Source: an uncultured Candidatus Saccharibacteria bacterium
GTDB lineage: Bacteria > Patescibacteriota > Minisyncoccia > Phycocordibacterales > UBA5272
DNA: 64,000 nt
Assembly (NCBI GenBank): GCA_964544935.1
Contig: CAZJDZ010000001.1
Span: forward strand, 27,018-91,017
Direction of reading: 5' to 3'
Each line of letters opens with the position of its first letter. The stretch's first letter is position 1. The notes beneath the pieces were generated by a model. The model saw nothing but the letters and a program-made list of their open reading frames with translations, had not been told where the DNA came from and made no database searches. Made by a program: the position numbers and the translations under genes. Of the stretch, positions 4,478 through 58,874 are shown piece after piece.

Positions 4478-4574
4478 ATTTATAATTTAATTTTGCGGAG
4501 GCATATTCATAGTTGCGATTACGCTCCTTGAAATGCACTGCGCAAAATCTGGTCGCGAGTACGCTCGCGATTTT

Positions 4575-4667
4575 GCGGTGATTATGGGTTAAGTACCCAC
4601 AGGTCTTGACCCCATAAGGGTATTTTAGCATCTTTTTCGAGCTCTAAAATATGTATGTGGGTCGCTA
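4575..4667. repeat. copy A of a ~90-bp intergenic repeat family (GGTTAAGTACCCAC ... CCATAAGGGTATTT ... AAAATATGTATGTGGGTCGCTA)
   Basis: Near-identical blocks at 24222..24311 and 24828..24920. Contains a GTGGGT/ACCCAC hairpin. Confidence 0.7.
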
Positions 4668-6104: not shown

Positions 6105-7397
6105 ATGGCTCAAACCATCGTGTGGAAGGAAGTGAAGGTAAAGGTAGCGGATCTCATCCCTGCCGATTACAACCCTAGAAAAATAAGTGCGAAGGAACGT
6201 GCAGAATTAACAACATCCGTAGAACAGTTCGGTCGTGTAGAGCCAGTTATCGTCAACACTGGCAAGCGTAAGAACTGTGTCATTGGTGGACATCAACGGC
6301 TTAAGATCTATGCCGATCTTGGTGTTACAGAAATAGAAGCAAAGGTACCAAGTCGTGAACTCACCGAAGATGAAGAAAAAGAACTCAATTTAAGACTCAA
6401 CAAAAATACTGGTTCATGGGACTTCGATAAGTTAGGAGAGTTTGATATGGATATGCTTCTTAATGTCGGTTTCGATGACGATGAATTGCAAGGCATGTTT
6501 GATGACGTTGATGTATCAGATGATGATTTTGACGTAGAGAAGGCTATTAAGGAAACCACGATGCCGAAAGTGAAGCTCGGCGAGATATGGGAACTTGGCG
6601 AACACAGATTGCTTGTTGGAAGTTCAACAGATGAGACTGCTGTCAGATTATTGATGGATAAGGATATGGCAGACATTGTGTATTGTGACCCACCATATAA
6701 CATCGGCTTGGACTATTCTAAAGGTCTTGGTAAGAATGAGAAGTACGGTGGGAGTTACTCAGGTAAGGATGATTCCAAAAAAGCGAAAGACTATGCGAAA
6801 TTCATGAATGACAGTATCTCTGTTGCTCTACAATTTGCAAAGCAAAGTGCTCACTTTTTCTACTGGTGTGATTCTACGAATATCGGACTCATTCAAGGAT
6901 TCTATGCGGACAACAAGATCATAAGTAGACGAGTGTGTATGTGGATCAAGAATAACCAGAACCCTACACCGAAAATTGCCTTCAACAAGGTGTATGAACC
7001 GTGTGTGTATGGCACGATTGGTACTCCACATCTCAACAAAGGGTTCCAAAATGCTAACGAAGTTCTAAACCAAGAAGTCGGTAGTGGTAACCAACTTCAC
7101 GACGAGATACTTGAAATGATAGACCTATGGATTGTGAAGCGTGATAGCACGAAAGAGTACATGCATCCGACACAGAAGCCTGTGAGCTTAAACGAGAAGC
7201 CATTTAAGCGTTGCTCTGCCCCTGGACAGATAATATTCTCAGGATTCGGTGGTAGTGGCAGTGATTTAATTGCGTGTGAACAACTGCATCGTAAGTGGCG
7301 TGGTGTAGAGCAAGACTTAATCTTCGCAACCATCATTATCGACAGATGGGAGAAATTTACTGGTAAGAAAGCAAAACTCATCTATGGTAGTAAATAA
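6105..7397 (+). CDS. ParB-like nuclease domain fused to an N4/N6 DNA methyltransferase
   Basis: N-terminal ParB/Srx motif (IGGHQRLKIY); methyltransferase motif IV VYCDPPYNIG; C-terminal motif I FSGFGGSGSDLIACEQLHRK (beta-class order). Confidence 0.8.
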   Translation: MAQTIVWKEVKVKVADLIPADYNPRKISAKERAELTTSVEQFGRVEPVIVNTGKRKNCVIGGHQRLKIYADLGVTEIEAKVPSRELTEDEEKELNLRLNKNTGSWDFDKLGEFDMDMLLNVGFDDDELQGMFDDVDVSDDDFDVEKAIKETTMPKVKLGEIWELGEHRLLVGSSTDETAVRLLMDKDMADIVYCDPPYNIGLDYSKGLGKNEKYGGSYSGKDDSKKAKDYAKFMNDSISVALQFAKQSAHFFYWCDSTNIGLIQGFYADNKIISRRVCMWIKNNQNPTPKIAFNKVYEPCVYGTIGTPHLNKGFQNANEVLNQEVGSGNQLHDEILEMIDLWIVKRDSTKEYMHPTQKPVSLNEKPFKRCSAPGQIIFSGFGGSGSDLIACEQLHRKWRGVEQDLIFATIIIDRWEKFTGKKAKLIYGSK

Positions 7398-8139
7398 CGG
7401 AGACATATTTGAGATTGCAGGACATACCATTGCTTGTGGTGACTCGCTTGATAGATTCTTTGTGAGTAAAGTAATAAATGGCAGAAAGATACGAGCAGTG
7501 ATAAGTGATCCACCGTACGGTGTAGCGTACGTAGAGAACAAGAAGGACATTGTAAGTCTTGGTGTCAAAGATGCTAAGGTAATTGTTGGCGACCAGATAC
7601 AGAGTGAATACGAATACGTACAGTTCACCAAGAAGTGGACTGAATGTGTCATTCCTCATTTGGACAAATACAACACCTTCCATATCTTTAACTCAGATAC
7701 GATGTTTCTAGGATTACGTACTGGGATGCAGATGGCTAATATTCATTTCAGTCAGATGCTCATCTGGCTTAAGAATCAACCGGTGATGGGTATGAAGGAT
7801 TACTTGTCTCAGTTTGAAGTCATTGCTTACGGTTGGTATGGGAAGCATAAGATGGAACGATCAAAAGCAAAGAGTGTTATCTATCATCCAAAGCCACGAT
7901 CTTCCAAGCTTCACCCTACACAAAAGCCAGTTGGATTACTGAGGAAAATAATCCCGAACGTTACGGTCATTGGTGATTACGTTTACGACGCCTTCTCAGG
8001 AAGTGGAACGACTGCTATTGCTTGTGAACACTTAGGTCGAAAGTGTATTGGTATAGAGCTTGATCCAGAGTATGTAAAAGTCATACTTTCACGTCTTGAG
8101 AAGCTAACCAAACAAAAAGCAGTCAAACGAATAGACTGA
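7384..8139 (+). CDS. N4/N6 DNA methyltransferase (orphan-type)
   Basis: ISDPPYGVAYV (motif IV) and FSGSGTTAIACEHLGRKCIGIELD (motif I). It overlaps the upstream gene by 14 nt. Confidence 0.8.
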   Translation: MVVNNGDIFEIAGHTIACGDSLDRFFVSKVINGRKIRAVISDPPYGVAYVENKKDIVSLGVKDAKVIVGDQIQSEYEYVQFTKKWTECVIPHLDKYNTFHIFNSDTMFLGLRTGMQMANIHFSQMLIWLKNQPVMGMKDYLSQFEVIAYGWYGKHKMERSKAKSVIYHPKPRSSKLHPTQKPVGLLRKIIPNVTVIGDYVYDAFSGSGTTAIACEHLGRKCIGIELDPEYVKVILSRLEKLTKQKAVKRID

Positions 8140-8519
8140 TGGACGAGCTAACACAAAGAAAAGGTGGAGTATACCGTAAGCAAGATTTTAACTCTTACGT
8201 TCTTTGGAAGTCCCTGCCTTCATTTCTCAAAGGTCAGCCAAAAATCATGCTTGAGAAGTTTGGCATCACTGATGGGCTTGCAGTTGAGCTACTCCAAATC
8301 AAAACACAAGGAGAGTTTGCGACGAAGTTTGGCATCAAAGACCCAGGCACACTCACCGACTGGAACAAACGAATTGAGAAAGAAGGACTACTCACATCCA
8401 TTAACTCATGGGCAAGAAGTCTTACGCCAAACGTGGTGCTTGCTCTCTACAAGAATGCAAGTAAGCATGGTAAAGCCCAAGAAGTGCGTGCATGGTTTGA
8501 AATTATAGAAAACAATTAA
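8139..8519 (+). CDS. hypothetical protein, possible HTH/DNA-binding (terminase-small-subunit-like guess is weak)
   Basis: 126 aa; start overlaps the upstream stop (TGATGG). No firm motif. Confidence 0.45.
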   Translation: MDELTQRKGGVYRKQDFNSYVLWKSLPSFLKGQPKIMLEKFGITDGLAVELLQIKTQGEFATKFGIKDPGTLTDWNKRIEKEGLLTSINSWARSLTPNVVLALYKNASKHGKAQEVRAWFEIIENN

Positions 8520-23740: not shown

Positions 23741-23817
23741 TTTTATTTGCGGAAACGAGAGGATATTCGGTCACAAATCTGCCTCCCGACTCACTGCGTT
23801 CGCTGGAGAGGATCCGG
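23741..23817. repeat. direct repeat copy 1, ~70 bp, starting with tRNA-Ser 3'-end-like sequence GCGGAAACGAGAGGAT
   Basis: Second copy at 23990..24056 (about 95% identical). Both resemble the 3' acceptor/T-stem of tRNA-Ser(GCU) at 25507..25535. Confidence 0.7.
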
Positions 23818-23989
23818 TCACCAAACATATCTTTTTATTTTCGTCTTACAGACTAAATAAAAAGATTGTTTCGCGACCCCGGCTTCGACACTTCAGTTTT
23901 GATTACAAAACTGGCTTCGCAGTGTCTCAGTTCGAACCCTCTTCATTCTCTCGCAAAATATAAATCACCCAAAGCTTTGCTTTGGGTTC

Positions 23990-24056
23990 ATTATTTTGCG
24001 GAGACGAGAGGATATTCGGTCACAAATCTACCTCCCGACTCACTGTGTTCGCTGGA
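23990..24056. repeat. direct repeat copy 2 (tRNA-Ser 3'-end-like)
   Basis: ttattttgcggagacgagaggatattcggtcacaaatctacctcccgactcactgtgttcgctgga. Confidence 0.7.
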
Positions 24057-24221
24057 CTAGAATTTTAACAGATTGATTACAATCTAAAAAATTCGTCGCG
24101 CATGCTCGAAGCAGATTCGCGACCCCTATTCGAATCCTCACGCATGACGCGCAGGCGTCATGCTTCGTCTCCTCAGAATGTAAAAAGCGACATCTTAAGA
24201 TATCGCTTTTTACATTCTGCG

Positions 24222-24311
24222 GGCCGTGTGGGTTAAGTACCCACGTGTTTAGACACCATAAGGGTATTTGATCATCTTTTTCGAGCTCTAAAATATGTAT
24301 GTGGGTCGCTA
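24222..24311. repeat. copy B of the ~90-bp intergenic repeat family
   Basis: Aligned with copies A and C. Confidence 0.7.
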
Positions 24312-24782: not shown

Positions 24783-24827
24783 ATAGATATTCTAGCATCT
24801 GGGTCACTCCGATACTTTTACATTATG

Positions 24828-24920
24828 GCGGTGATTGTAGGTTAAGTACCCACACGTCTAGACACCATAAGGGTATTTTAACATCTCTTCCAAGCTATAA
24901 AATATGTATGTGGGTCGCTA
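24828..24920. repeat. copy C of the ~90-bp repeat family, preceded by a duplicate of the tRNA-Ser 3' flank (cgatacttttacattatggcgg)
   Basis: Aligned with A and B. The flank at 24812..24835 matches 25488..25511. Confidence 0.7.
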
Positions 24921-28082: not shown

Positions 28083-28200
28083 TTCAGGTCCCGCTTTCTA
28101 TAATAGTACAATCTAAAAAGAGACTATCATGTTCATACATAAAGTCAAAACAAAAGAGCGACGCCTACGGCGTCGCTCTTTTGTTTTGAAATTCTATTGA

Positions 28201-28740
28201 TTATTCATCTTCACTAATCATATCCATGATAGCGAGCACTTCACCAGTATAAGGAGGTTCTACTGAACCGTTATAGTAGTAAAGCTTCTCTTCTGTAGAC
28301 TTTCCGGCATAGTATCGTGAAGTGTTCTTGTTAGCACCTCCTAGATTTTTACCGAGAGATTCGATAGCTTCTTCATAACTATTGAAGTTATGGCCAAGCT
28401 TACACGATCCCCAGCCAAAGGCATTATACCCACAGGCTTGCTTACCACCAGAAGATTCGCGAACACCGATAGCTGGAAGAAGTCTCCAGTCGAGACCGTA
28501 TTTTTCAGCAACAAGTACGAATGTCATACCTGTTCCTGCAAGAGGCATACTACGCTGTTTGAAGAAATGGTTAATTGCTTCTGCGCGCTCTTTACGGACG
28601 TCTTCAATCGAAACGATTTCCTTTGTTACAGGCTTTGCTTCGAGTGAACCAATATGTGAGGTAACTGAGACACTTGGGATGGCCATGAATGGCACAAACG
28701 CGAGCATCATCTGAGTAACCTTATAGATTTTGTGTGTCAT
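28201..28740 (-). CDS. secreted peptidoglycan-hydrolase-like protein (lytic transglycosylase/glucosaminidase-like core)
   Basis: N-terminal signal/TM segment; AEKYGLDWRLLPAIGVRESSGG resembles SLT-type catalytic Glu-Ser motifs. Confidence 0.45.
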   Translation of the reverse strand: MTHKIYKVTQMMLAFVPFMAIPSVSVTSHIGSLEAKPVTKEIVSIEDVRKERAEAINHFFKQRSMPLAGTGMTFVLVAEKYGLDWRLLPAIGVRESSGGKQACGYNAFGWGSCKLGHNFNSYEEAIESLGKNLGGANKNTSRYYAGKSTEEKLYYYNGSVEPPYTGEVLAIMDMISEDE

Positions 28741-29139
28741 GATTGTAGTGATTACGCTTCACCAACGTGTCGTATCTGGAATTTTTGCGAAAAATAAAAT
28801 ACCTACTCGGTAAATTATTGACTTTCCACTTTATTATTGTGTAATGTAATTATAGCACCTATTGGATCAAAAGTCAAGCATTACACAACAAAATATACTA
28901 TATTGTCAATATGCAGTTCCTAAAAAACCTTATTTTATATAGATAATTTGCAAAATAGAAAAAAACGTGTTATTATCCAATTTACCTAGTTTTCCTTACT
29001 TTTATGCGAAAACTAGTAATTTTATACGGCCTCATCGTCTATCGGTTGGGCGATCAGTAGATCGTGCCGAGAGGCTTAGCAGGTTCCTGTGTCCTGATGT
29101 AAAATACACAGTACACAACGTTTCTTTAATAAAAAATAC

Positions 29140-29211
29140 GGCCTCATCGTCTATCGGTTAGGACACAGGCTTCTCATGCCTGGAAGCGGAGTTCGATTCT
29201 CCGTGAGGTCA
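29140..29211 (+). tRNA. tRNA-Glu(CUC)
   Basis: Manual fold: GGCCTCA acceptor; D-arm GTC..GAC; anticodon arm CAGGC-TTCTCAT-GCCTG; T-arm CGGAG-TTCGATT-CTCCG. Closely resembles E. coli tRNA-Glu. Confidence 0.75.
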
Positions 29212-29367
29212 CATCAACAAAAATACACAGGTAATTCCTGTGTATTTTTGTTGACGGTGATCAATAGAAGCAAAACACCTGCGTGTTTTGCGGGAGAATC
29301 GAATGGGGCTCGCGGGACTTTATCGAGGAGTTCATGACGAGAAGTCCTGTGAGCGATTCTCTGTGAG
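29207..29367. repeat. 161-bp direct repeat R1, 100% identical to R2
   Basis: Starts at the tRNA-Glu 3' end. Contains a terminator hairpin and one copy of the conserved ~70-nt element. Confidence 0.9.
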
Positions 29368-29595
29368 CCAATATGAATTGCTTCTTGTGCGTGGAGAATC
29401 GAATACGGGCGAGTCAGCAGACGAACTAGCAAGTGAGTGTCTTGGATCGAGTGTCCTACGTGATTTCGCGAATCTGCTTCGAGCATAGCGAGGCAGATTT
29501 GTGACCGATTCTCCTTGAAGTCATCAACAAAATTTTAACCTGATTCTATTTAAAGTAAATATCGCCAAGCAGTTTCCTGCTTGGCGATTAGTTTG

Positions 29596-29868
29596 TCAGT
29601 CATGGTAGTTAGAAACGGTCGCTTTCATATTCCACTGATCATTTTCATGATCCCAGCGGAAGACTGCGAGTTCCTCAACCGAGTAACTGAGTTTAGATTT
29701 TGCCAGTTGGATGGCATTGTCCAAGGTGCCTTCAAAGTCAATGGCGCAATCAAACCTGCCACCACTCACTCTGATGTACGAGGTCGGGTAGTACCCAACC
29801 TCGTCGTCGTAATCCATACGACTAATTACATACTTTTGTACATCCGTGTTCTCCGTGGGTGCGGCCAT
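29596..29868 (-). CDS. hypothetical 90-aa protein located between the R1 and R2 repeats
   Basis: Clean ORF with its own terminator hairpin (29552..29580, atcgccaagcag-tttc-ctgcttggcgat). Confidence 0.45.
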   Translation of the reverse strand: MAAPTENTDVQKYVISRMDYDDEVGYYPTSYIRVSGGRFDCAIDFEGTLDNAIQLAKSKLSYSVEELAVFRWDHENDQWNMKATVSNYHD

Positions 29869-30085
29869 GATCAGTCTCCTTGCTTTTCAGCAAGATGACT
29901 AATCAAAGACCTTTGATTAATGAAATCATTCTTGCAATATATAAAAGCAAATATAGTATAACATACTATATCATTTTGTCAAATTATTATGTGATGTAAT
30001 CAGTAGTGAACTAAAAATTAACACATGTTGAAACCCCCTAACCCCCTTACCATCCCACCAACAATTTCCAATTTTGTACCCCTAG

Positions 30086-30246
30086 GGTCACATCAACAAA
30101 AATACACAGGTAATTCCTGTGTATTTTTGTTGACGGTGATCAATAGAAGCAAAACACCTGCGTGTTTTGCGGGAGAATCGAATGGGGCTCGCGGGACTTT
30201 ATCGAGGAGTTCATGACGAGAAGTCCTGTGAGCGATTCTCTGTGAG
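30086..30246. repeat. 161-bp direct repeat R2
   Basis: Identical to 29207..29367. Confidence 0.9.
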
Positions 30247-30344
30247 TTCACAAATACAAAAAGCACTATATATTAATAACATTTTTTGTTTTGACTTGTA
30301 GTACTGCTATTGACAATTATATACTTTACGTGTTATAATAATAA

Positions 30345-30662
30345 TTGGTCATTCATCCATATCTACGGAGAGTAAAAATGCAAATGCGTATTGGCAATAT
30401 TGTCATACTACCTGCTTTAATCTTTGGATTCTTTGATATGCTGTGGCGTGGCAAAGGATTCGCTCAGAGTCTTTCCTTCACAAGAAAAGCTGTTTGCTGT
30501 TTGTTTTGGGATGAAGATACAGAACGACGCATAAAGCGATTTTGTTCGAAGGTAAACTCTGGATGTACAAAGAGTATTGCTTACAGACAAATCCACAAGA
30601 GGCGTGTCGCCTATGCATCTGAGGTGTACGAGCTCCTAGAGCTCCATCTCATGGTCAAATAA
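30345..30662 (+). CDS. hypothetical small protein
   Basis: ORF followed by the terminator CCACCGAA...TTCGGTGG + T-run (30670..30712). Confidence 0.4.
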   Translation: MVIHPYLRRVKMQMRIGNIVILPALIFGFFDMLWRGKGFAQSLSFTRKAVCCLFWDEDTERRIKRFCSKVNSGCTKSIAYRQIHKRRVAYASEVYELLELHLMVK

Positions 30663-30823
30663 CATCATCACCACCGAAAGCCACCGCGCGTTCGGTGGTC
30701 TTTCTTTTTATTATATTGCAGTGCTAATTTTTAACTGCAATTCACTAAACCCCCTTACCACCCCCACCAACGATTTCCAATTCTTTAGCCCTAGGATCAT
30801 AGATTAAATTTGTATATACTTAT

Positions 30824-31117
30824 TTGCATATGTTTGGAGCACCACAACCGCCAAGTCAAGAGAAAGAGGATTTTTCAGTATTAGCAAATAAAATAGAAGC
30901 AATCGCCCAGCAATATAAAGACAGTGTTTTTTTACCAAAACTCATACGAGTACTTCGTGACGGTAATAGATATGGAGCAGAAGTATTTATTAATAATGAA
31001 TCTGATAAATTTAGATCGTTTGGAAATGATCTTATCATACTTCTAATACAGGATTTTTACGGTGGTTCAGGAAGTCCATGGTTCACAACCGAAAGAAAAC
31101 TTAAAGAACAGAAGTAA
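30824..31117 (+). CDS. hypothetical small protein
   Basis: 97-aa ORF preceded by a 50-bp repeat (30747..30795, copy of 30036..30086). Confidence 0.4.
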   Translation: MHMFGAPQPPSQEKEDFSVLANKIEAIAQQYKDSVFLPKLIRVLRDGNRYGAEVFINNESDKFRSFGNDLIILLIQDFYGGSGSPWFTTERKLKEQK

Positions 31118-31288
31118 AACTGTGAAATTCTCTAATATCAGTAATTGTAAATTTGCAATTCATTTGCCCTACGAATGTGGTGACACCTTCGACTGAACTG
31201 TGTACAACACCTGCCGAAGGCCACCGCGCGTTCGGTGGTTTTCTTTTTTACAACCTAACCATCCCCTCATGCTATAATTCATTCTAAT

Positions 31289-31543
31289 ATGATTGACCCA
31301 GAATTAAAAAAACACCTTGAAACAATTGAAGAAGAGCTAATAGTTCTTCGCAAAACTTCAACAGGATTCTCTTCTACATTTATGCGGGGACTTGTCTACG
31401 GAGGAGGATATGTCGTTGGTGCTGTATTTGTGGTGATTATTGTTGGTTGGATTTTAAATATTATTGGAGTTATCCCTGCGCTGAGCAACTATGCTACAGA
31501 ATTCCGTACAGCACTAGAGCGAATAGGCGGACCAGTCAAATAA
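31289..31543 (+). CDS. small membrane protein
   Basis: 84 aa with a C-terminal TM segment GAVFVVIIVGWILNIIGVIPAL. Confidence 0.45.
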   Translation: MIDPELKKHLETIEEELIVLRKTSTGFSSTFMRGLVYGGGYVVGAVFVVIIVGWILNIIGVIPALSNYATEFRTALERIGGPVK

Positions 31544-33587: not shown

Positions 33588-33907
33588 TCTTCTGCTCCTG
33601 TTTTCACTGTAGATATTGAAAGGGCAACAACCTGTTTAACTGCTCGGAGTAAACCAAGCCGACTAACAAGTTGATAGAATACTACCACAAACAAACAGTA
33701 ACGTCTACATGAAAGGTGGATAAGTACAGGATGCTGTAGCTCAAGAAGCTTGGCTTCGAAGACATCCGAAGCTAGCAAGCGTAGGATGCTGTAGCTTGTA
33801 GCTGAAATTCTACGGGTGCAAATTAAACACAAATGCGTGACGCCTACGGCGTCACGCATTGTATTGTATGTAAGCTAAAGGCTACAAGCTAACAACTAAA
33901 AACTTCT

Positions 33908-43769: not shown

Positions 43770-44327
43770 ATGCTTAAAGAAAAAAAATCATTTTTCGAGC
43801 GTCTTGCTGGCTCGATTAGCGTTGAGGATGAAGATGAGTCAGTGGATTTCGTTGCACCTCAAGTACAAGATGATGAACCTGAAGAGGAAGAAGTTCCTGT
43901 TAAGCATGTAGGAAATAAATCTGCTCTTGCTACTCAAATGGCACGACCTAAACATCATGTTGTAGAAGAAGACCATGACGACGAGGTTGATGTCGAAGAA
44001 GGCGAGCTCTCAGTAGATGTCTACCAGACAGCTTCTGAAATTATTATAGAAGCCATGGTTGCCGGAGTTAAACCTGAAGACCTTCACCTTTCAATTACAC
44101 GAGACATGGTTACCATTAAAGGACGCCGTGATGGAAATACCCAAGTAAATCATGATGACTATTTTTATAAAGAACTATACTGGGGAACTTTTACCCGTAC
44201 GATTCTTCTCCCTCATGAAGTAGAAATAGAAGAAGCAGAAGCGGTAGAAAAGCACGGGCTTCTCATTGTAAGACTTCCAAAGGTAGACAAGGCTCGTCAA
44301 ACAAAACTAAAAGTTAAGTCAATCTAA
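43770..44327 (+). CDS. Hsp20/alpha-crystallin small heat-shock protein with acidic N-terminal extension
   Basis: ACD pattern LSVDVYQTASEIIIEAMVAGVKPEDLHLSI...GTFTRTILLPHEV...GLLIVRLPK. Confidence 0.8.
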   Translation: MLKEKKSFFERLAGSISVEDEDESVDFVAPQVQDDEPEEEEVPVKHVGNKSALATQMARPKHHVVEEDHDDEVDVEEGELSVDVYQTASEIIIEAMVAGVKPEDLHLSITRDMVTIKGRRDGNTQVNHDDYFYKELYWGTFTRTILLPHEVEIEEAEAVEKHGLLIVRLPKVDKARQTKLKVKSI

Positions 44328-44363
44328 TAAAAAACACTGCACAGGTCGTGCAGTGTTTTTTAT

Positions 44364-44921
44364 TTAGATTAAATGTAAAAAGTTATTAAAAATCTCTCTT
44401 CCACATGTTTGTTCTACAAACATTTCAGGATGAAACTGTACACCGTATACAGGAAGACTCTTATGTTTTATAACCTCAACACCATCTTGTGAGCGAGCAA
44501 GCGATACCATCTCATTACCAAGAGAAGCAACTACCCATCTATGGCTTTCAAAAACAGAGAAATTTGTAATTGTTAAAAATAAATCATCTGGCTCTATAAC
44601 CTCTATCTTAATAAGTCCTTTTTCTTTTTCTTTCATTTCCTGTAACTTTGCCCCAAAAACATGAGCAATGAGCTCAAAACCAAAACAAATACCAAGTATT
44701 GGTTTATTACAGTTTCTAATAAATTCTATTTCATTTTCAAGAAGAGACTCATTACCAACTACAGGAAAGCTGTGCCCTCCTGATAAAATAAAGAGATCAA
44801 AATCTTTCTCTTTTTCTATTGAAAGATCTGCAAACGAAATCACTTCAAATTTTTTTTCTGCAAGTAATTGTTTGAGGCTTTCAATATAGCTTGTACCGTT
44901 GTCAACTACGAGAATTTTCAT
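44364..44921 (-). CDS. class I glutamine amidotransferase-like protein
   Basis: PILGICFGFELIAHVFG nucleophile elbow and C-terminal YGVQFHPE. Confidence 0.7.
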   Translation of the reverse strand: MKILVVDNGTSYIESLKQLLAEKKFEVISFADLSIEKEKDFDLFILSGGHSFPVVGNESLLENEIEFIRNCNKPILGICFGFELIAHVFGAKLQEMKEKEKGLIKIEVIEPDDLFLTITNFSVFESHRWVVASLGNEMVSLARSQDGVEVIKHKSLPVYGVQFHPEMFVEQTCGREIFNNFLHLI

Positions 44922-45001
44922 ATGTAATTTTAAGTATACTTTACAACATAAATAAAAAACACTGCACAGGTCGTGCAGTGTTTTTTATTCCTCTTTTTAA
45001 G

Positions 45002-46870: not shown

Positions 46871-47231
46871 AATACTAATTTAGTAAGTATACCTAATAAG
46901 GTGATACATATATATTGTTATCAACAAGAATAGATTATTAATAAGACAAAGGTAATCGGTCACCTCGTCTTACTTCTCTCGAAACAGGAGACTCCGTGGC
47001 CCCTATCTGATTCCTAACAGAGATCAAATAGTTTTATTCATCCCATAAACTAATACACGTTATGCTCTCGACAGGAAACGTGAGTAAACTTTCGGTCACA
47101 GAATCATTTTTAGATTACTAAAATAAAAGATTCTGCGACCCCTATCCGATTCCTGACGAAAAGCACGCAGGTGCTTTTCTCCGAGAGCACAGAATACAAA
47201 AAGTAACATCAAGTGATGTCACTTTTTGTAT

Positions 47232-47307
47232 TCTGTGCTCTCGGCAGGAATCGGACCCACATTAATCCCTTAGGACGGGACTGTTCTATCCATTGAACTA
47301 CGAGAGC
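47232..47307 (-). tRNA. tRNA-Arg(CCU)-like
   Basis: Manual fold: acceptor GCTCTCG/CGAGAGC; D-arm GTTC..GAAC with GG; anticodon loop GUCCUAA; T-arm GTGGG-TCCGATT-CCTGC. Atypical residues at positions 32 and 55. Confidence 0.5.
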
Positions 47308-47695: not shown

Positions 47696-47895
47696 CCTTA
47701 CTACACCACCGCGTTGAAGGCTGTTCCTTTTTATGCTAGAATTGAGAAATCAACAAAAAAGTTGAAGTTGTAGAATATACTGGGATAGCTCGAGAAGCTT
47801 GGCTTCGAAGATATCTGGAACCAGCAGGTGGAAGACGCAAGTTGTTAGATTGTTCAAGTGAAAATAAACAAAGTAGGCAGAAGAAATAAACATAT

Positions 47896-47968: not shown

Positions 47969-48045
47969 CAAAATACAAAAAGCAGTATCTAAAAAGATGC
48001 TGCTTTTTGTATTTTGTGCTGGGACAGTACGACGCCTGCGCGTCG

Positions 48046-48116
48046 TACGTCCAGGTTCGAATAGGGGTCGCGGAACAAACTCGAGGAGCTTGTGACGAGG
48101 AGTTCCGTGACCGAAC
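48046..48116 (+). repeat. copy of the conserved ~70-nt tRNA-flanking element (core TCGAATAGGGGTCGCGGA, nested helices)
   Basis: Outer helix CAGGTTCG/CGAACCTG and inner helix GTCGCGGAAC/GTTCCGTGAC. Homologous copies occur at 29276..29367 (also in R2), 48146..48215, 29386..29510, and inverted at 24100..24135, 46965..46992 and 47136..47160. Confidence 0.6.
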
Positions 48117-48294
48117 CTGATTTCTAAAGTGACCTTCGTCACTTTTGTCCAGGCTCGAATAGGGGTCGCGGAGTAACTTCGATGTCCGAAGTATGGAGGG
48201 TCTCTGTGACTGACTCCCTGATAATTTGACAATATACTTTTAAAGTTGTAGATTTATTTTGTTCTTCACTCAATTAGCAGCAAAGGAGACTTTT

Positions 48295-49269: not shown

Positions 49270-49564
49270 AGCTTTGCTAGTATATAGTTTACCATGGCGC
49301 CCACACTAAAAGTGGCTACCTATAATACAATACCTATGATATTTAATGCAAAAAATAAAAAAACAATACAACGAGTGTGGGCAGTTATCTCGATTCTTGC
49401 AATCGTTGGAATGATTGGATTTTCTTTGATTCCTTTTATTGGATAACGACTACCGATAAAAAATGCACGACGCCTACGGCGTCGTGCATTTTTTATATAT
49501 CAATCTAAACCAGAAAGAGAATCTGTACCAGAGCTACATACTTTAGTGACATATCATACATAGG

Positions 49565-53936: not shown

Positions 53937-54014
53937 TATTATTGTATAATATCAAAAAAATGCTGTAATTAGAAGGCAAAAGAGCGGCGCCTATGGCGCC
54001 GCTCTTTTATCTTT

Positions 54015-54491: not shown

Positions 54492-54563
54492 ATGAGTAAC
54501 AATACAACTAAATTATACAAAAAGCAATAGTGTCGCCTGCGGCGACACTATTGCTTTTTGTAA

Positions 54564-57652: not shown

Positions 57653-57976
57653 TCAACCGCCAATAGAAAACATATTTACATAACATGTTCCAAATCCAAC
57701 CAGTATTGATACTGCAAGGAAAAGTGCTGCAAACTTCATAAGATTCTTTCCTCCTCTATTAAAAGTAATAGCCCCAACTATGAGAAATAAAAAAGGAGAA
57801 AAGATTGCAAGAGGGGCACCAATATACCATAGAAAGACCCCCTGTTCAAAAATAAAGCTAGATAACGACGAAGCAATAAGAATAACCATTGTGGCTATAA
57901 AAATTATTTTTGGGATTTTTAGAGTATCTTTTTCTTTAATTGATTTAACTTCTGCTTGTATTATTTTTTCTTTCAT
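57653..57976 (-). CDS. small membrane protein, paralog 1 of a tandem triplet (C-terminal GxGTC(F/Y)VN motif)
   Basis: LIVGAITFNRGGKNLMKFAALFLAVSILVGFGTCYVNM. Confidence 0.5.
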   Translation of the reverse strand: MKEKIIQAEVKSIKEKDTLKIPKIIFIATMVILIASSLSSFIFEQGVFLWYIGAPLAIFSPFLFLIVGAITFNRGGKNLMKFAALFLAVSILVGFGTCYVNMFSIGG

Positions 57977-58021
57977 GCGTATTTATTTTTTACTAATAAT
58001 AGTATTAATAAAACAAATCGT

Positions 58022-58381
58022 CTATATTCCCCCAATATTTACAAAACAAGTCCCAGCACCAACAAGAGTAGTTACAAGAAAGAAGTGTCCTGCAAATTTT
58101 ATAAGACGACTACCTCCATTTTTATAAGTAATAGCACCTACTATTAAAAAAATAATCGTGAATAAAGTTGAAACCATTAGGGCAATAGCCCAGGAATTCA
58201 CCCCTCCACCTTGCATAAACAGCTGAACTATAACAGAATCAGATCCTAGTTCTAAATGTCGAATTATAAAACCTAACAACGAAGGAATGATAAAGACTGC
58301 TATCGTAATTTTAATCAAAAGTTTCCCAAACTTTTCCATCTTTGTTTCCACTATAGGTTCTTGTGTTGTATTTTCTTGCAT
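58022..58381 (-). CDS. small membrane protein, paralog 2
   Basis: MQENTTQEPIVETKMEKFGKLL... LIVGAITYKNGGSRLIKFAGHFFLVTTLVGAGTCFVNI. Confidence 0.55.
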   Translation of the reverse strand: MQENTTQEPIVETKMEKFGKLLIKITIAVFIIPSLLGFIIRHLELGSDSVIVQLFMQGGGVNSWAIALMVSTLFTIIFLIVGAITYKNGGSRLIKFAGHFFLVTTLVGAGTCFVNIGGI

Positions 58382-58476
58382 AGATATAGTATATCCTAAA
58401 CTTTTTCTTATGCGTATAAGAATTCCTGCTGCAAAGATTTATATATTCTAGAAAATTAGAAAACATATCCCAACCT

Positions 58477-58836
58477 CTAACAAGAAGGACACAAAATATC
58501 TACCGCGGAAATATTTACAAAACATGTTCCAGTTCCAACTACAAGTGTTGTTATAAAAAAAAGACCAGCAAATCTCATAAGACGACCACCTCCTTTTTTA
58601 TAGGTGATAGTCCCTACTATCAAAAATATAACAGAAAAAACAACAGAAACTGCTGCTGTAGTGAGGTAGGTACCAAGAATCAAATAATTCATTAATGATT
58701 GACTTCCAACCCCCATAGCAATCAAACCAATTAGTATTGAGATAACAGACACTGCTACCGTAACTTTTAATAAAAGTTTTGCAAACTTTTCCATCTTTGT
58801 TTCTACTATAGGTTCTTGTGTTATATTTTCTAGCAT
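58477..58836 (-). CDS. small membrane protein, paralog 3
   Basis: MLENITQEPIVETKMEKFAKLL... LIVGTITYKKGGGRLMRFAGLFFITTLVVGTGTCFVNI...CPSC. Confidence 0.55.
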   Translation of the reverse strand: MLENITQEPIVETKMEKFAKLLLKVTVAVSVISILIGLIAMGVGSQSLMNYLILGTYLTTAAVSVVFSVIFLIVGTITYKKGGGRLMRFAGLFFITTLVVGTGTCFVNISAVDILCPSC

Positions 58837-58874
58837 AGATATAAGTATATATCAAAATCTTTACTAAAAAGAAA

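Follow-up and report, generated by a model that had tools for sequence, protein, structure and literature searches.

The locus described here lies in a 64,000-nt window (hereafter the window, to which all coordinates refer unless a comparison locus is named) from the assembly of an uncultured Candidatus Saccharibacteria bacterium. It is centered on a tRNA-Glu(CTC) gene on the plus strand (29140..29212; predicted by ARAGORN; Rfam RF00005, 52.3 bits; no encoded CCA) and on two direct repeats, R1 (29207..29367) and R2 (30086..30246), that follow this gene on the same strand. The original prediction had described these repeats as perfect, and they are in fact 161 nt each and 100% identical, with an offset of 879 nt from start to start; according to our repeat computation, they are the sole long perfect repeat in the window. 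R1 had also been said to start within the 3’ end of the tRNA gene, which is correct, as a tRNA spanning 29140 to 29211 or 29212 places the beginning of R1 (GGTCA) 5 nt inside that end. Between the two repeats lie, as had likewise been reported, a second copy of a structured module (E2), a bidirectional terminator-like hairpin and a 90-aa open reading frame (ORF90).

R1 opens with the final 5 nt of the tRNA and continues with a first hairpin (hp1), a segment complementary to the tRNA acceptor, a second hairpin (hp2) and a structured module, of which it includes everything as far as nucleotide 14 of a terminal copy of the tRNA 3’ end. Its hp1 (29214..29254, plus strand) is a perfect 18-bp inverted repeat resembling an intrinsic terminator (fold z = -8.6 and -7.3), and is lengthened by GGTGATC (29256-29262), which pairs with the GGTCAC of the tRNA 3’ end. 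Module 1 (29270..29373, plus strand), recognized by a covariance model (CM) built from 19 modules with 101 bits and E = 1e-22, as well as by covariation and by the match of its left inverted repeat (IR-L), is made of hp2 (29270-29291, with a CUGC loop), IR-L (GGAGAATCGAAT, 29293-29304), a conserved bulge, a core hairpin and a right inverted repeat (IR-R, 29354-29371) that is a degenerate copy of the tRNA 3’ end. In R2, hp1 maps to 30093-30133 and the CM match to the module extends from 30149 to 30252 (104.7 bits). The motif formed by the last 18 nt of tRNA-Glu (CGATTCTCCGTGAGGTCA, at 29194) recurs, slightly degenerate, at 29354 (the end of R1), 29506, and 30233 (the end of R2); the R1 copy matches the tRNA at 14 of 19 positions, and the R2 copy, which runs on as GTGAGTTCACA, at 17 of 19. 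GGTCAC opens both R1 and R2, and direct repeats derived from the tRNA 3’ end are hence found at both junctions.

The general architecture of the element, read 5’ to 3’ on the tRNA strand, is tRNA 3’ end, hp1, hp2, IR-L, bulge, core, and IR-R with its tail. hp1 is a long and near-perfect hairpin with an A-tract, a GC stem and a U-tract, in the same style as the terminators of protein-coding genes in this genome (for example, 44326-44364), and its 3’ side is extended by 6-10 nt complementary to the acceptor 3’ strand of the tRNA; this design is also seen behind tRNA-Phe and tRNA-Arg. hp2 is a 7-9-bp hairpin with a CUGC loop. IR-L is the reverse complement of the T-loop (from C56) and of the T-stem 3’ strand of the cognate tRNA, as exemplified by the sequences associated with tRNA-Glu (GGAGAATCGAA), the tRNA-Glu(TTC) of locus L069 (GGAGAGTCGAA), tRNA-Ser (GAGATTCGAA), tRNA-Phe (CCAGGCTCGAA) and tRNA-Arg (CAGGAATCGGA), and is followed by a conserved bulge of 7-8 nt, GAAUA(C)GG. 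The core consists of a GGUCGCG/UGUGACC helix topped by a variable apical hairpin with CGAG…CGAG, while IR-R and its tail directly repeat the tRNA sequence that starts at C56 and runs 1-2 nt past the discriminator, corresponding to the last ~19 nt of the tRNA.

Evidence that this structure is under selection came from covariation. RNAalifold identified 30 pairs, 22 of which show compensatory double changes, and 92.8% of cells were paired, compared to 77.1% in column shuffles, where the observed value was not reached in any of 500 replicates; control registers obtained by sliding the alignment by 1-3 columns gave values between 36 and 45%. One of the pairs is G-U in 18 of the 19 sequences and another in 10 of 19 and, because these would be mismatches on the opposite strand, they assign the structure to the tRNA-sense strand. 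When isolated, the modules are predicted to fold as closed, Y-shaped three-way junctions, whose terminal helix would be formed by the anti-acceptor segment and by the copied acceptor 3’ strand; as predicted, this helix reproduces the acceptor/T-stem stack of the module’s own tRNA.

To place these elements in a broader context, we assembled a comparison set of 68 loci, retrieved from genome assemblies by means of the 179-aa protein encoded next to the tRNA gene (loci are indicated here by L numbers). The close loci all belong to metagenome-assembled genomes (MAGs) of Patescibacteria (candidate phyla radiation, CPR), labelled Paceibacteria, Nomurabacteria or “Saccharibacteria”, and share the gene order 179-aa gene, tRNA-Glu, tRNA-Ser. 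BLAST and nhmmer revealed R-like sequences in many of these relatives, located directly after tRNA-Glu in L005, L012, L016, L022 and L033, after tRNA-Ser genes in L001, L003, L005 and L011, and in some cases kilobases away from a tRNA (L001 and L006). Matches to the CM numbered 7 in the window, 26 across L001-L035 together with L069, and 2 in L107, with none in the more distant loci or in Escherichia coli. Within the window, besides the elements at tRNA-Glu, members of the family trail tRNA-Phe (47970..48230, plus strand), where hp1 pairs with the whole acceptor 3’ strand and is followed by two tandem modules (48027-48131 and 48132-48230), and tRNA-Arg(CCT) (47040..47234, minus strand; module 47179-47081), while two further tandem elements found with the CM match tRNA-Ser(GCT) (23746..24215, minus strand), which lies 1.3 kb upstream of them. 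Tandem pairs in the window are therefore R1 with E2, the two tRNA-Phe modules and the two tRNA-Ser elements.

The position of the modules and their sequence both follow the tRNA. About 20 of the 32 tabulated modules sit 35-65 nt behind a tRNA gene on the same strand, be it tRNA-Glu (CTC or TTC), tRNA-Ser (GCT, ACT or CGA), tRNA-Phe or tRNA-Arg, and the remaining ones are either second units of tandems or are parted from the matching tRNA by inserted genes; L107 adds tRNA-Ala to the tRNAs that are served. In at least 11 of these 32 modules the tail is an exact 16-20-nt copy of the 3’ end of the cognate tRNA, and IR-L matches the T-loop and T-stem of the cognate tRNA over 10-13 nt as a reverse complement, to the point that a T-loop variant (TTCGATT instead of TTCGACT) is mirrored in both IR-L and IR-R. 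Identity is 58-64% between paralogous modules within the window and 66-86% between orthologues, which argues that these elements are old residents of their genomes. R1 and R2 are whole copies of a conserved structured RNA element that trails many tRNAs without any cassette. We found no relevant earlier description of such elements in Patescibacteria within the limited literature collection that was available to us.

The segment bracketed by R1 and R2 begins with E2 (29374..29525, plus strand), a further module that lacks hp1 and whose core is enlarged, identified by the CM (23.5 bits, 29429-29525), by nhmmer (43.5 bits) and by its fold. Its IR-L maps to 29393-29404 and its copy of the tRNA 3’ end (CGATTCTCCTTGAAGTCA) to 29506-29523, and its 3’ part is 91% identical to the module of element R’ in L069. 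E2 is followed by the bidirectional terminator-like hairpin (29561..29588; fold z = -6.2), located at the 3’ end of ORF90 (29596..29868, minus strand), an accessory gene preceded by an AAGGAG ribosome-binding site and by a promoter-like site with TG, TTGACA-16-TATACT (29955..29982, minus strand; 11 of 12 positions). Past this promoter is a cassette-boundary motif, AAACCCCC...CCCACCAACAATTTCCAATTTTGTACCCCTAGGGTCA (30031..30090, plus strand), that ends in a pseudo tRNA 3’ end and recurs at 30747-30799; this motif is also present at the cassette edges in L069 and, in degenerate form, in L073 and L074. Beyond R2, the next cassette (30310..30662, plus strand) has a perfect TTGACA-18-TATAAT promoter (30310-30339), a 94-aa ORF (30378-30662) and a terminator (30680-30699). 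ORF90 had been described as GC-richer than its surroundings, and its GC content is indeed 0.476, against 0.382 for the window. A homology search of the 90-aa protein, as had been suggested, returned only 3 homologues (100, 81 and 79% identity), and no match was found in Pfam, PADLOC or NCBIfam. When the exact sequences of this protein and of the neighboring 179-aa protein were looked up, neither was on record. The AlphaFold2 model of ORF90 has a mean predicted local distance difference test score of 61.5, too weak to justify a fold search.

The unit formed by the terminator, ORF90, its promoter and the upstream motif was found in three different genomic contexts. In L069-L072, from four Joint Genome Institute samples, the order is a pseudo-5’ copy of the tRNA, tRNA-Glu(TTC), R, the terminator-ORF90-promoter unit, the boundary motif, R’, a small ORF, the boundary motif again, and R’’, with flanking elements that are only 50-64% identical to one another. 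This arrangement indicates that the layout in which the ORF90 cassette is flanked on either side by R-type elements is old. In L073 and L074 the cassette (84.5% identity over 536 nt) has unrelated genes as neighbors, and no R element was seen within the short flanks examined (~0.1-0.2 kb on the terminator side); the cassette thus represents a small unit that moved independently of R.

Among the causes that the original prediction had proposed for the perfect identity of R1 and R2 was a very recent event, and our comparison agrees with it, given that elements in such arrays elsewhere are only 42-64% identical and that a value of 100% is exceptional also when compared to the figures reported above for paralogues and orthologues, which points to an event that is both recent and local. 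We consider it probable that R1 and R2 represent a lineage-specific, structured trailer RNA element of tRNA transcription units, akin to the RtT RNA of E. coli discussed below, and that their perfect identity stems from recent local recombination, most likely gene conversion. Since the place of R2 is already taken by an R-type element in L069, the most parsimonious scenario would be that an element already present behind the cassette was overwritten by the tRNA-proximal one, or the reverse. Alternatively, duplicative recombination through R could have occurred, and a circular unit with R, E2 and the cassette that integrated by homologous recombination within R would yield the same product. Partial homogenization is seen elsewhere in the window, where a 62-nt block is 95% identical between the two tandem tRNA-Ser elements, and the RtT repeats of E. 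coli, at 95% identity, offer a further example.

Several points weigh against this interpretation. Since hp1 resembles a good terminator, transcription of the module depends on read-through of this hairpin, and the absence of a tRNA or of an evident plus-strand promoter upstream of R2 implies that at least this copy may be inert. The way the modules track their tRNAs could also stem from templated correction, through quasi-palindrome template switching or gene conversion from the adjacent tRNA, rather than from selection. Furthermore, gene conversion of a whole element needs flanking homology, and only GGTCAC is shared on the left side; lastly, the identity starts and stops at an equivalent point of the tRNA-3’-end repeat, between GTGAG and GTCA, which fits a site-specific event too.

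This last observation is in fact among those that could favor a different explanation, in which the 879-bp unit with R, E2 and the ORF90 cassette would be an integrative mini-element able to integrate and excise through site-specific recombination at the 3’ end of tRNA-Glu, with R1 and R2, or their GGTCAC core, as attL and attR. The bracketed segment is flanked by tRNA 3’-end repeats, the cassette occurs in three contexts, and in L001 an island with a serine recombinase sits at exactly this junction between copies of a 7-nt GGGTCAC repeat. There is however no recombinase in or beside the unit, as the ORF list and Pfam show ORF90 to be the only gene-like ORF between the repeats, and the repeats are whole structured elements that are found at many tRNAs without cassettes. 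In addition, the flanking elements in L069 have diverged, and the cassette of L073 and L074 has no R elements in the short flanks examined. We thus regard this explanation as unlikely. The idea of an excisable cassette with att-like ends, put forward in the original prediction, is consequently sustained only in part, with regard to the mobility of the cassette unit across three contexts and to the use of a hotspot junction, but not with regard to the nature of the repeats and to the content of the segment they enclose.

It is equally doubtful that R2 is a fresh insertion of a mobile R, in which case R-type elements would be small, non-autonomous mobile elements targeting sequences that resemble a tRNA 3’ end. 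The 161-nt unit is exactly one period of tRNA end, element and tRNA end, and the second copy of the boundary motif (30763-30799, ending in …CCCTAGGATCA at 30789-30799) resembles an unoccupied site. Elements are also variably present or absent at orthologous tRNAs, and the nearest relative of a module of the window (82% identity) belongs to the tRNA-Ala array of another organism. A recent burst of transposition is nevertheless hard to reconcile with within-genome paralogues that are only 58-64% identical, the inverted repeats are not constant termini but vary with each tRNA, the right flank of R1 lacks the expected rest of the tRNA-end repeat, and no transposase is known for such elements. Least probable of all is an assembly artefact, where a repeat-induced mis-join or a mixture of strains yielded two copies of R for one, or a longer array collapsed: although the window comes from a MAG, as do all of its relatives, and its only perfect repeat of this kind is close in size (161 bp) to a read or k-mer length, all four junctions would have to exist in the reads, and the order tRNA, R, cassette, motif and R-type element is repeated in four independently assembled contigs of a relative (L069-L072).

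Whatever its origin, a perfect 161-bp direct repeat is a substrate for RecA-mediated deletion, or pop-out, of the 879-bp unit. If recombination through R were active, the deletion would leave a junction reading tRNA…R…TTCACAAATAC, while the excised circle would join …CCCCTAG to GGTCAC…R…GTGAG and then to CCAATATG. A metagenome scan for a near-identical strain with an empty site or a junction variant yielded one contig, L107, which represents a different tRNA locus.

The tRNA 3’ junction is an insertion hotspot. In L001 (508-8389), a 7.9-kb island bounded by the 7-nt GGGTCAC repeat separates tRNA-Glu from its R element, and is probably devoted to defence: it encodes Abi_C, a serine hydrolase, an NB-ARC-like/AAA ATPase, a protein resembling cytidine deaminases, and a large serine recombinase (PF07508/PF00239) whose gene, at 6723-8450, overlaps the end of the tRNA. 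In the window, tRNA-Ser(GCT) is parted from its elements by genes for a HAD hydrolase and a GNAT protein, and L003 (11772-11888) provides the corresponding uninterrupted site. In L027 and L035, tRNA-Glu is directly followed by homologues of the DUF5665 (31289) and DUF2256 (31894) genes of the window, which makes the interval 29212-31250 a variable insert composed of three small ORFs and the elements. L107 carries tRNA-Ala(TGC) followed by R, a promoter-ORF-terminator unit, a second R, and a further promoter and ORF. The DNA behind tRNA-Glu is thus a variable region, where arrays of elements accompany small self-contained cassettes that insert beside sequences resembling a tRNA 3’ end, and the ORF90 cassette is one of these. 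This maps a cassette-accumulating hotspot in Patescibacteria; the results also show that, in MAGs, “att-like” repeats of tRNA ends can be resident RNA elements and not scars of mobile DNA.

Other repeats were noted in the course of this work. A family of ~95-nt repeats with 87% identity (4570-4667, 24214-24311 and 24823-24920; TAGCGACCCACATACATATTTTAGAGCTCGAAAAAGATG.TAAAATACCCTTATGGTGTCTAGAC.TGTGGGTACTTAACCCACAATCACCGCC when read on the minus strand) ends with T-arm-like and acceptor 3’ strand-like sequences and CC(A), and is not in Rfam at the gathering threshold; two of its copies follow the genes for HAD and GNAT proteins, in the interval that separates tRNA-Ser(GCT) from its trailer element. 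In nine loci (L003, L011, L015, L019, L023, L026, L030, L036 and L038) CC or CCA is encoded in the tRNA-Glu gene, and just behind it recurs a motif (TTCAACAGCTAGCACGAGAAGG, ATTAGTGCTAGCACGAGAAG) resembling an attachment site for integrated elements of another family. With regard to terminators, two 39-nt bidirectional hairpins that are 100% identical (AATAAAAAACACTGCACAGGTCGTGCAGTGTTTTTTATT; 44326-44364 and 44951-44989) surround a glutamine amidotransferase gene (44364-44921), and the terminator-like hairpins at 28141-28181, 33820-33860, 49450-49490, 53967-54007 and 54513-54553 share a common loop region (GACGCCTACGGCGTC) with stems that covary. Finally, three tandem diverged repeats (57671-58843; 67-86% identity, period of ~360-476 nt) extend over small ORFs of ~119-121 aa, and are probably a paralogous gene array.

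The 5’ side of tRNA-Glu also carries a copy of the tRNA. The duplication of the tRNA 5’ end described in the original prediction is real, but its coordinates were off by 2-3 nt, as it is a 27-nt stretch, 26 of which are identical (29024-29050 and 29136-29162), with a spacing of 112 nt, that covers 4 nt upstream of the tRNA and its first 23 nt; 0 such matches are expected by chance. This copy opens a leader element (29024..29135, plus strand; fold z = -3.1), where it is followed by a covarying hairpin and by GAGAGGC, a segment complementary to the 5’ acceptor strand of the tRNA. The leader, of ~110 nt, is kept in L069, L002, L032 and L006, the last of which has two tandem copies, and its hairpin exhibits compensatory changes (GCGATC/GATCGT, GTGATT/AATCAC and GCGATG/CATCGT). 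Being part of a leader that is conserved in relatives with ~80% identity, the 5’ duplication is not recent. In L107 (270-400), the region upstream of tRNA-Ala(TGC) contains a duplicate of the initial ~19 nt of this tRNA, then a structured insert and a stretch (CATATAAGCTAAGAG) that can pair with the 5’ end of the tRNA, a design shared with the tRNA-Glu leader. The leader mirrors the design of the trailer. A 53-nt repeat with 79% identity (33737-33789 and 47786-47838), has one of its copies ~60 nt before tRNA-Phe, and may represent a promoter element or a leader similar to that of tRNA-Glu.

The organization of these RNAs suggests how they might work. hp1, which begins with the final nucleotides of the tRNA, would be a hairpin of the terminator or processing type, and the module would be made by read-through of hp1 and thus be co-transcribed with the tRNA. 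Because its terminal helix copies the acceptor/T-stem stack, the module might then be released by nucleases that act on tRNA ends, such as RNase P, RNase Z or RNase III. A competition between two states could also be envisioned, where the anti-tRNA strand pairs either with the 3’ half of the real tRNA or with the decoy copy. Minimum-energy folding of the tRNA-Phe precursor predicts pairing between the tRNA’s own 3’ half and the anti-tRNA strand; in the predicted fold of the L005 tRNA-Ser precursor it is the tRNA 5’ strand that pairs with the distal copy instead, and in that of the tRNA-Glu precursor cloverleaf and module coexist, all of these folds being predictions and not functional evidence.

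Comparison with known systems helps to define what these elements are. A number of candidates were considered and set aside: a diversity-generating retroelement with template and variable repeats (TR/VR), as the repeats are 100% identical and non-coding; a miniature inverted-repeat transposable element, as the inverted repeats differ among loci and track the adjacent tRNA, and the target repeat is ~19 nt; a viral origin, as the 32 IMG/VR contigs with the core 16-mer were chance matches, none of which fit the CM or the expected placement next to a tRNA; and also group I and group II introns, T-box elements, Y RNA and guides similar to bridge RNA. Like integron cassette arrays, with their attC sites and promoterless ORFs, the region alternates small ORFs with imperfect hairpin elements of variable length; its ORFs however possess their own promoters and terminators, and its elements are tied to tRNAs. 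An integron was indeed rejected, based on the lack of GTTRRRY/RYYYAAC boxes in R or E2 and of an integrase between 26 and 34 kb, and on closing inverted repeats that are tRNA-derived. With genomic islands integrated at tRNA 3’ ends between attL and attR, the locus shares direct repeats of the tRNA 3’ end that bracket inserted DNA, and the serine-recombinase island of L001 does use the same junction. Here, however, each repeat is a structured element of 161 nt that shows covariation and contains the target in inverted orientation as well, no recombinase accompanies the repeats, and such elements also occur without inserted genes.

The closest parallel is the RtT RNA of E. coli (RF00391; rttR). 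Repeats of tRNA 3’ ends behind tRNA genes have been known since the tyrT locus of E. coli was sequenced, where 178-bp repeats each contain the last 19 bp of tRNA-Tyr; to our knowledge, they have so far been a curiosity of one family, without a mechanism. When we checked the tyrTV region of strain MG1655, four RF00391 matches were found (133-138 bits): the first lies in the spacer of the two tRNAs and the other three lie downstream of tyrV, and they recur every 178 nt with 95% identity. Each unit ends in AAUCCUUCCCCCACCACCA, the 3’ end of tRNA-Tyr, and the Rfam consensus structure has GGGGAAGGAU/AUCCUUCCCC as its closing helix. According to a recent preprint, the rtT RNA is involved with the processing of the tyrT transcript and probably in modulating the stringent response, and its mode of action is unknown (10.1101/2024.07.17.603846). 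The elements of the window resemble RtT in being repeated structured units, often in tandem, on the tRNA strand of tRNA gene spacers or trailers, in having as their last ~19 nt a direct copy of the tRNA 3’ end, which forms the closing helix with a complementary segment inside the unit, and in the occurrence of near-identical copies; furthermore, the apical UCGAGCG.AGCGAGA of E. coli resembles the UCGAGC..AGCGAGG of the short-core modules described here. At the Rfam gathering threshold (45 bits for RtT) no RtT was found in the whole window, and RF00391 had no match at E<=10 in 28700-31500 or in L069 5600-5740; all that these Rfam searches returned was tRNAs and noise. As no sequence homology is detectable, and RF00391 and our CM each miss the other’s targets, we classify these elements as RtT-like in design and not as RtT. 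They differ, in fact, in the addition of hp1, the anti-acceptor extension and hp2, in a complement that extends into the T-loop, in being interleaved with gene cassettes, and in fitting at least five tRNA identities, as opposed to a single one for E. coli RtT. Tentatively, and well short of a firm claim, it is conceivable that the R-type elements and their mirror-image leaders belong to a widespread and previously unrecognized class of RNAs that resemble tRNAs and are matched to them, with E. coli RtT as an isolated relic. Each, with its anti-tRNA strand and its decoy copy of the tRNA end, would form a two-state device acting in cis, which would either govern the maturation or quality of its own tRNA or give rise to a small RNA with the cognate acceptor/T-stem helix, to be read by tRNA-specific enzymes. 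These elements provide many natural variants on which the action of rtT-type RNAs could be tested, and the presence of the same design in a distant, genome-reduced phylum, with strong covariation and tailored to at least five tRNA identities, argues that it is the design itself, a copy of the tRNA end together with its complement, that matters.

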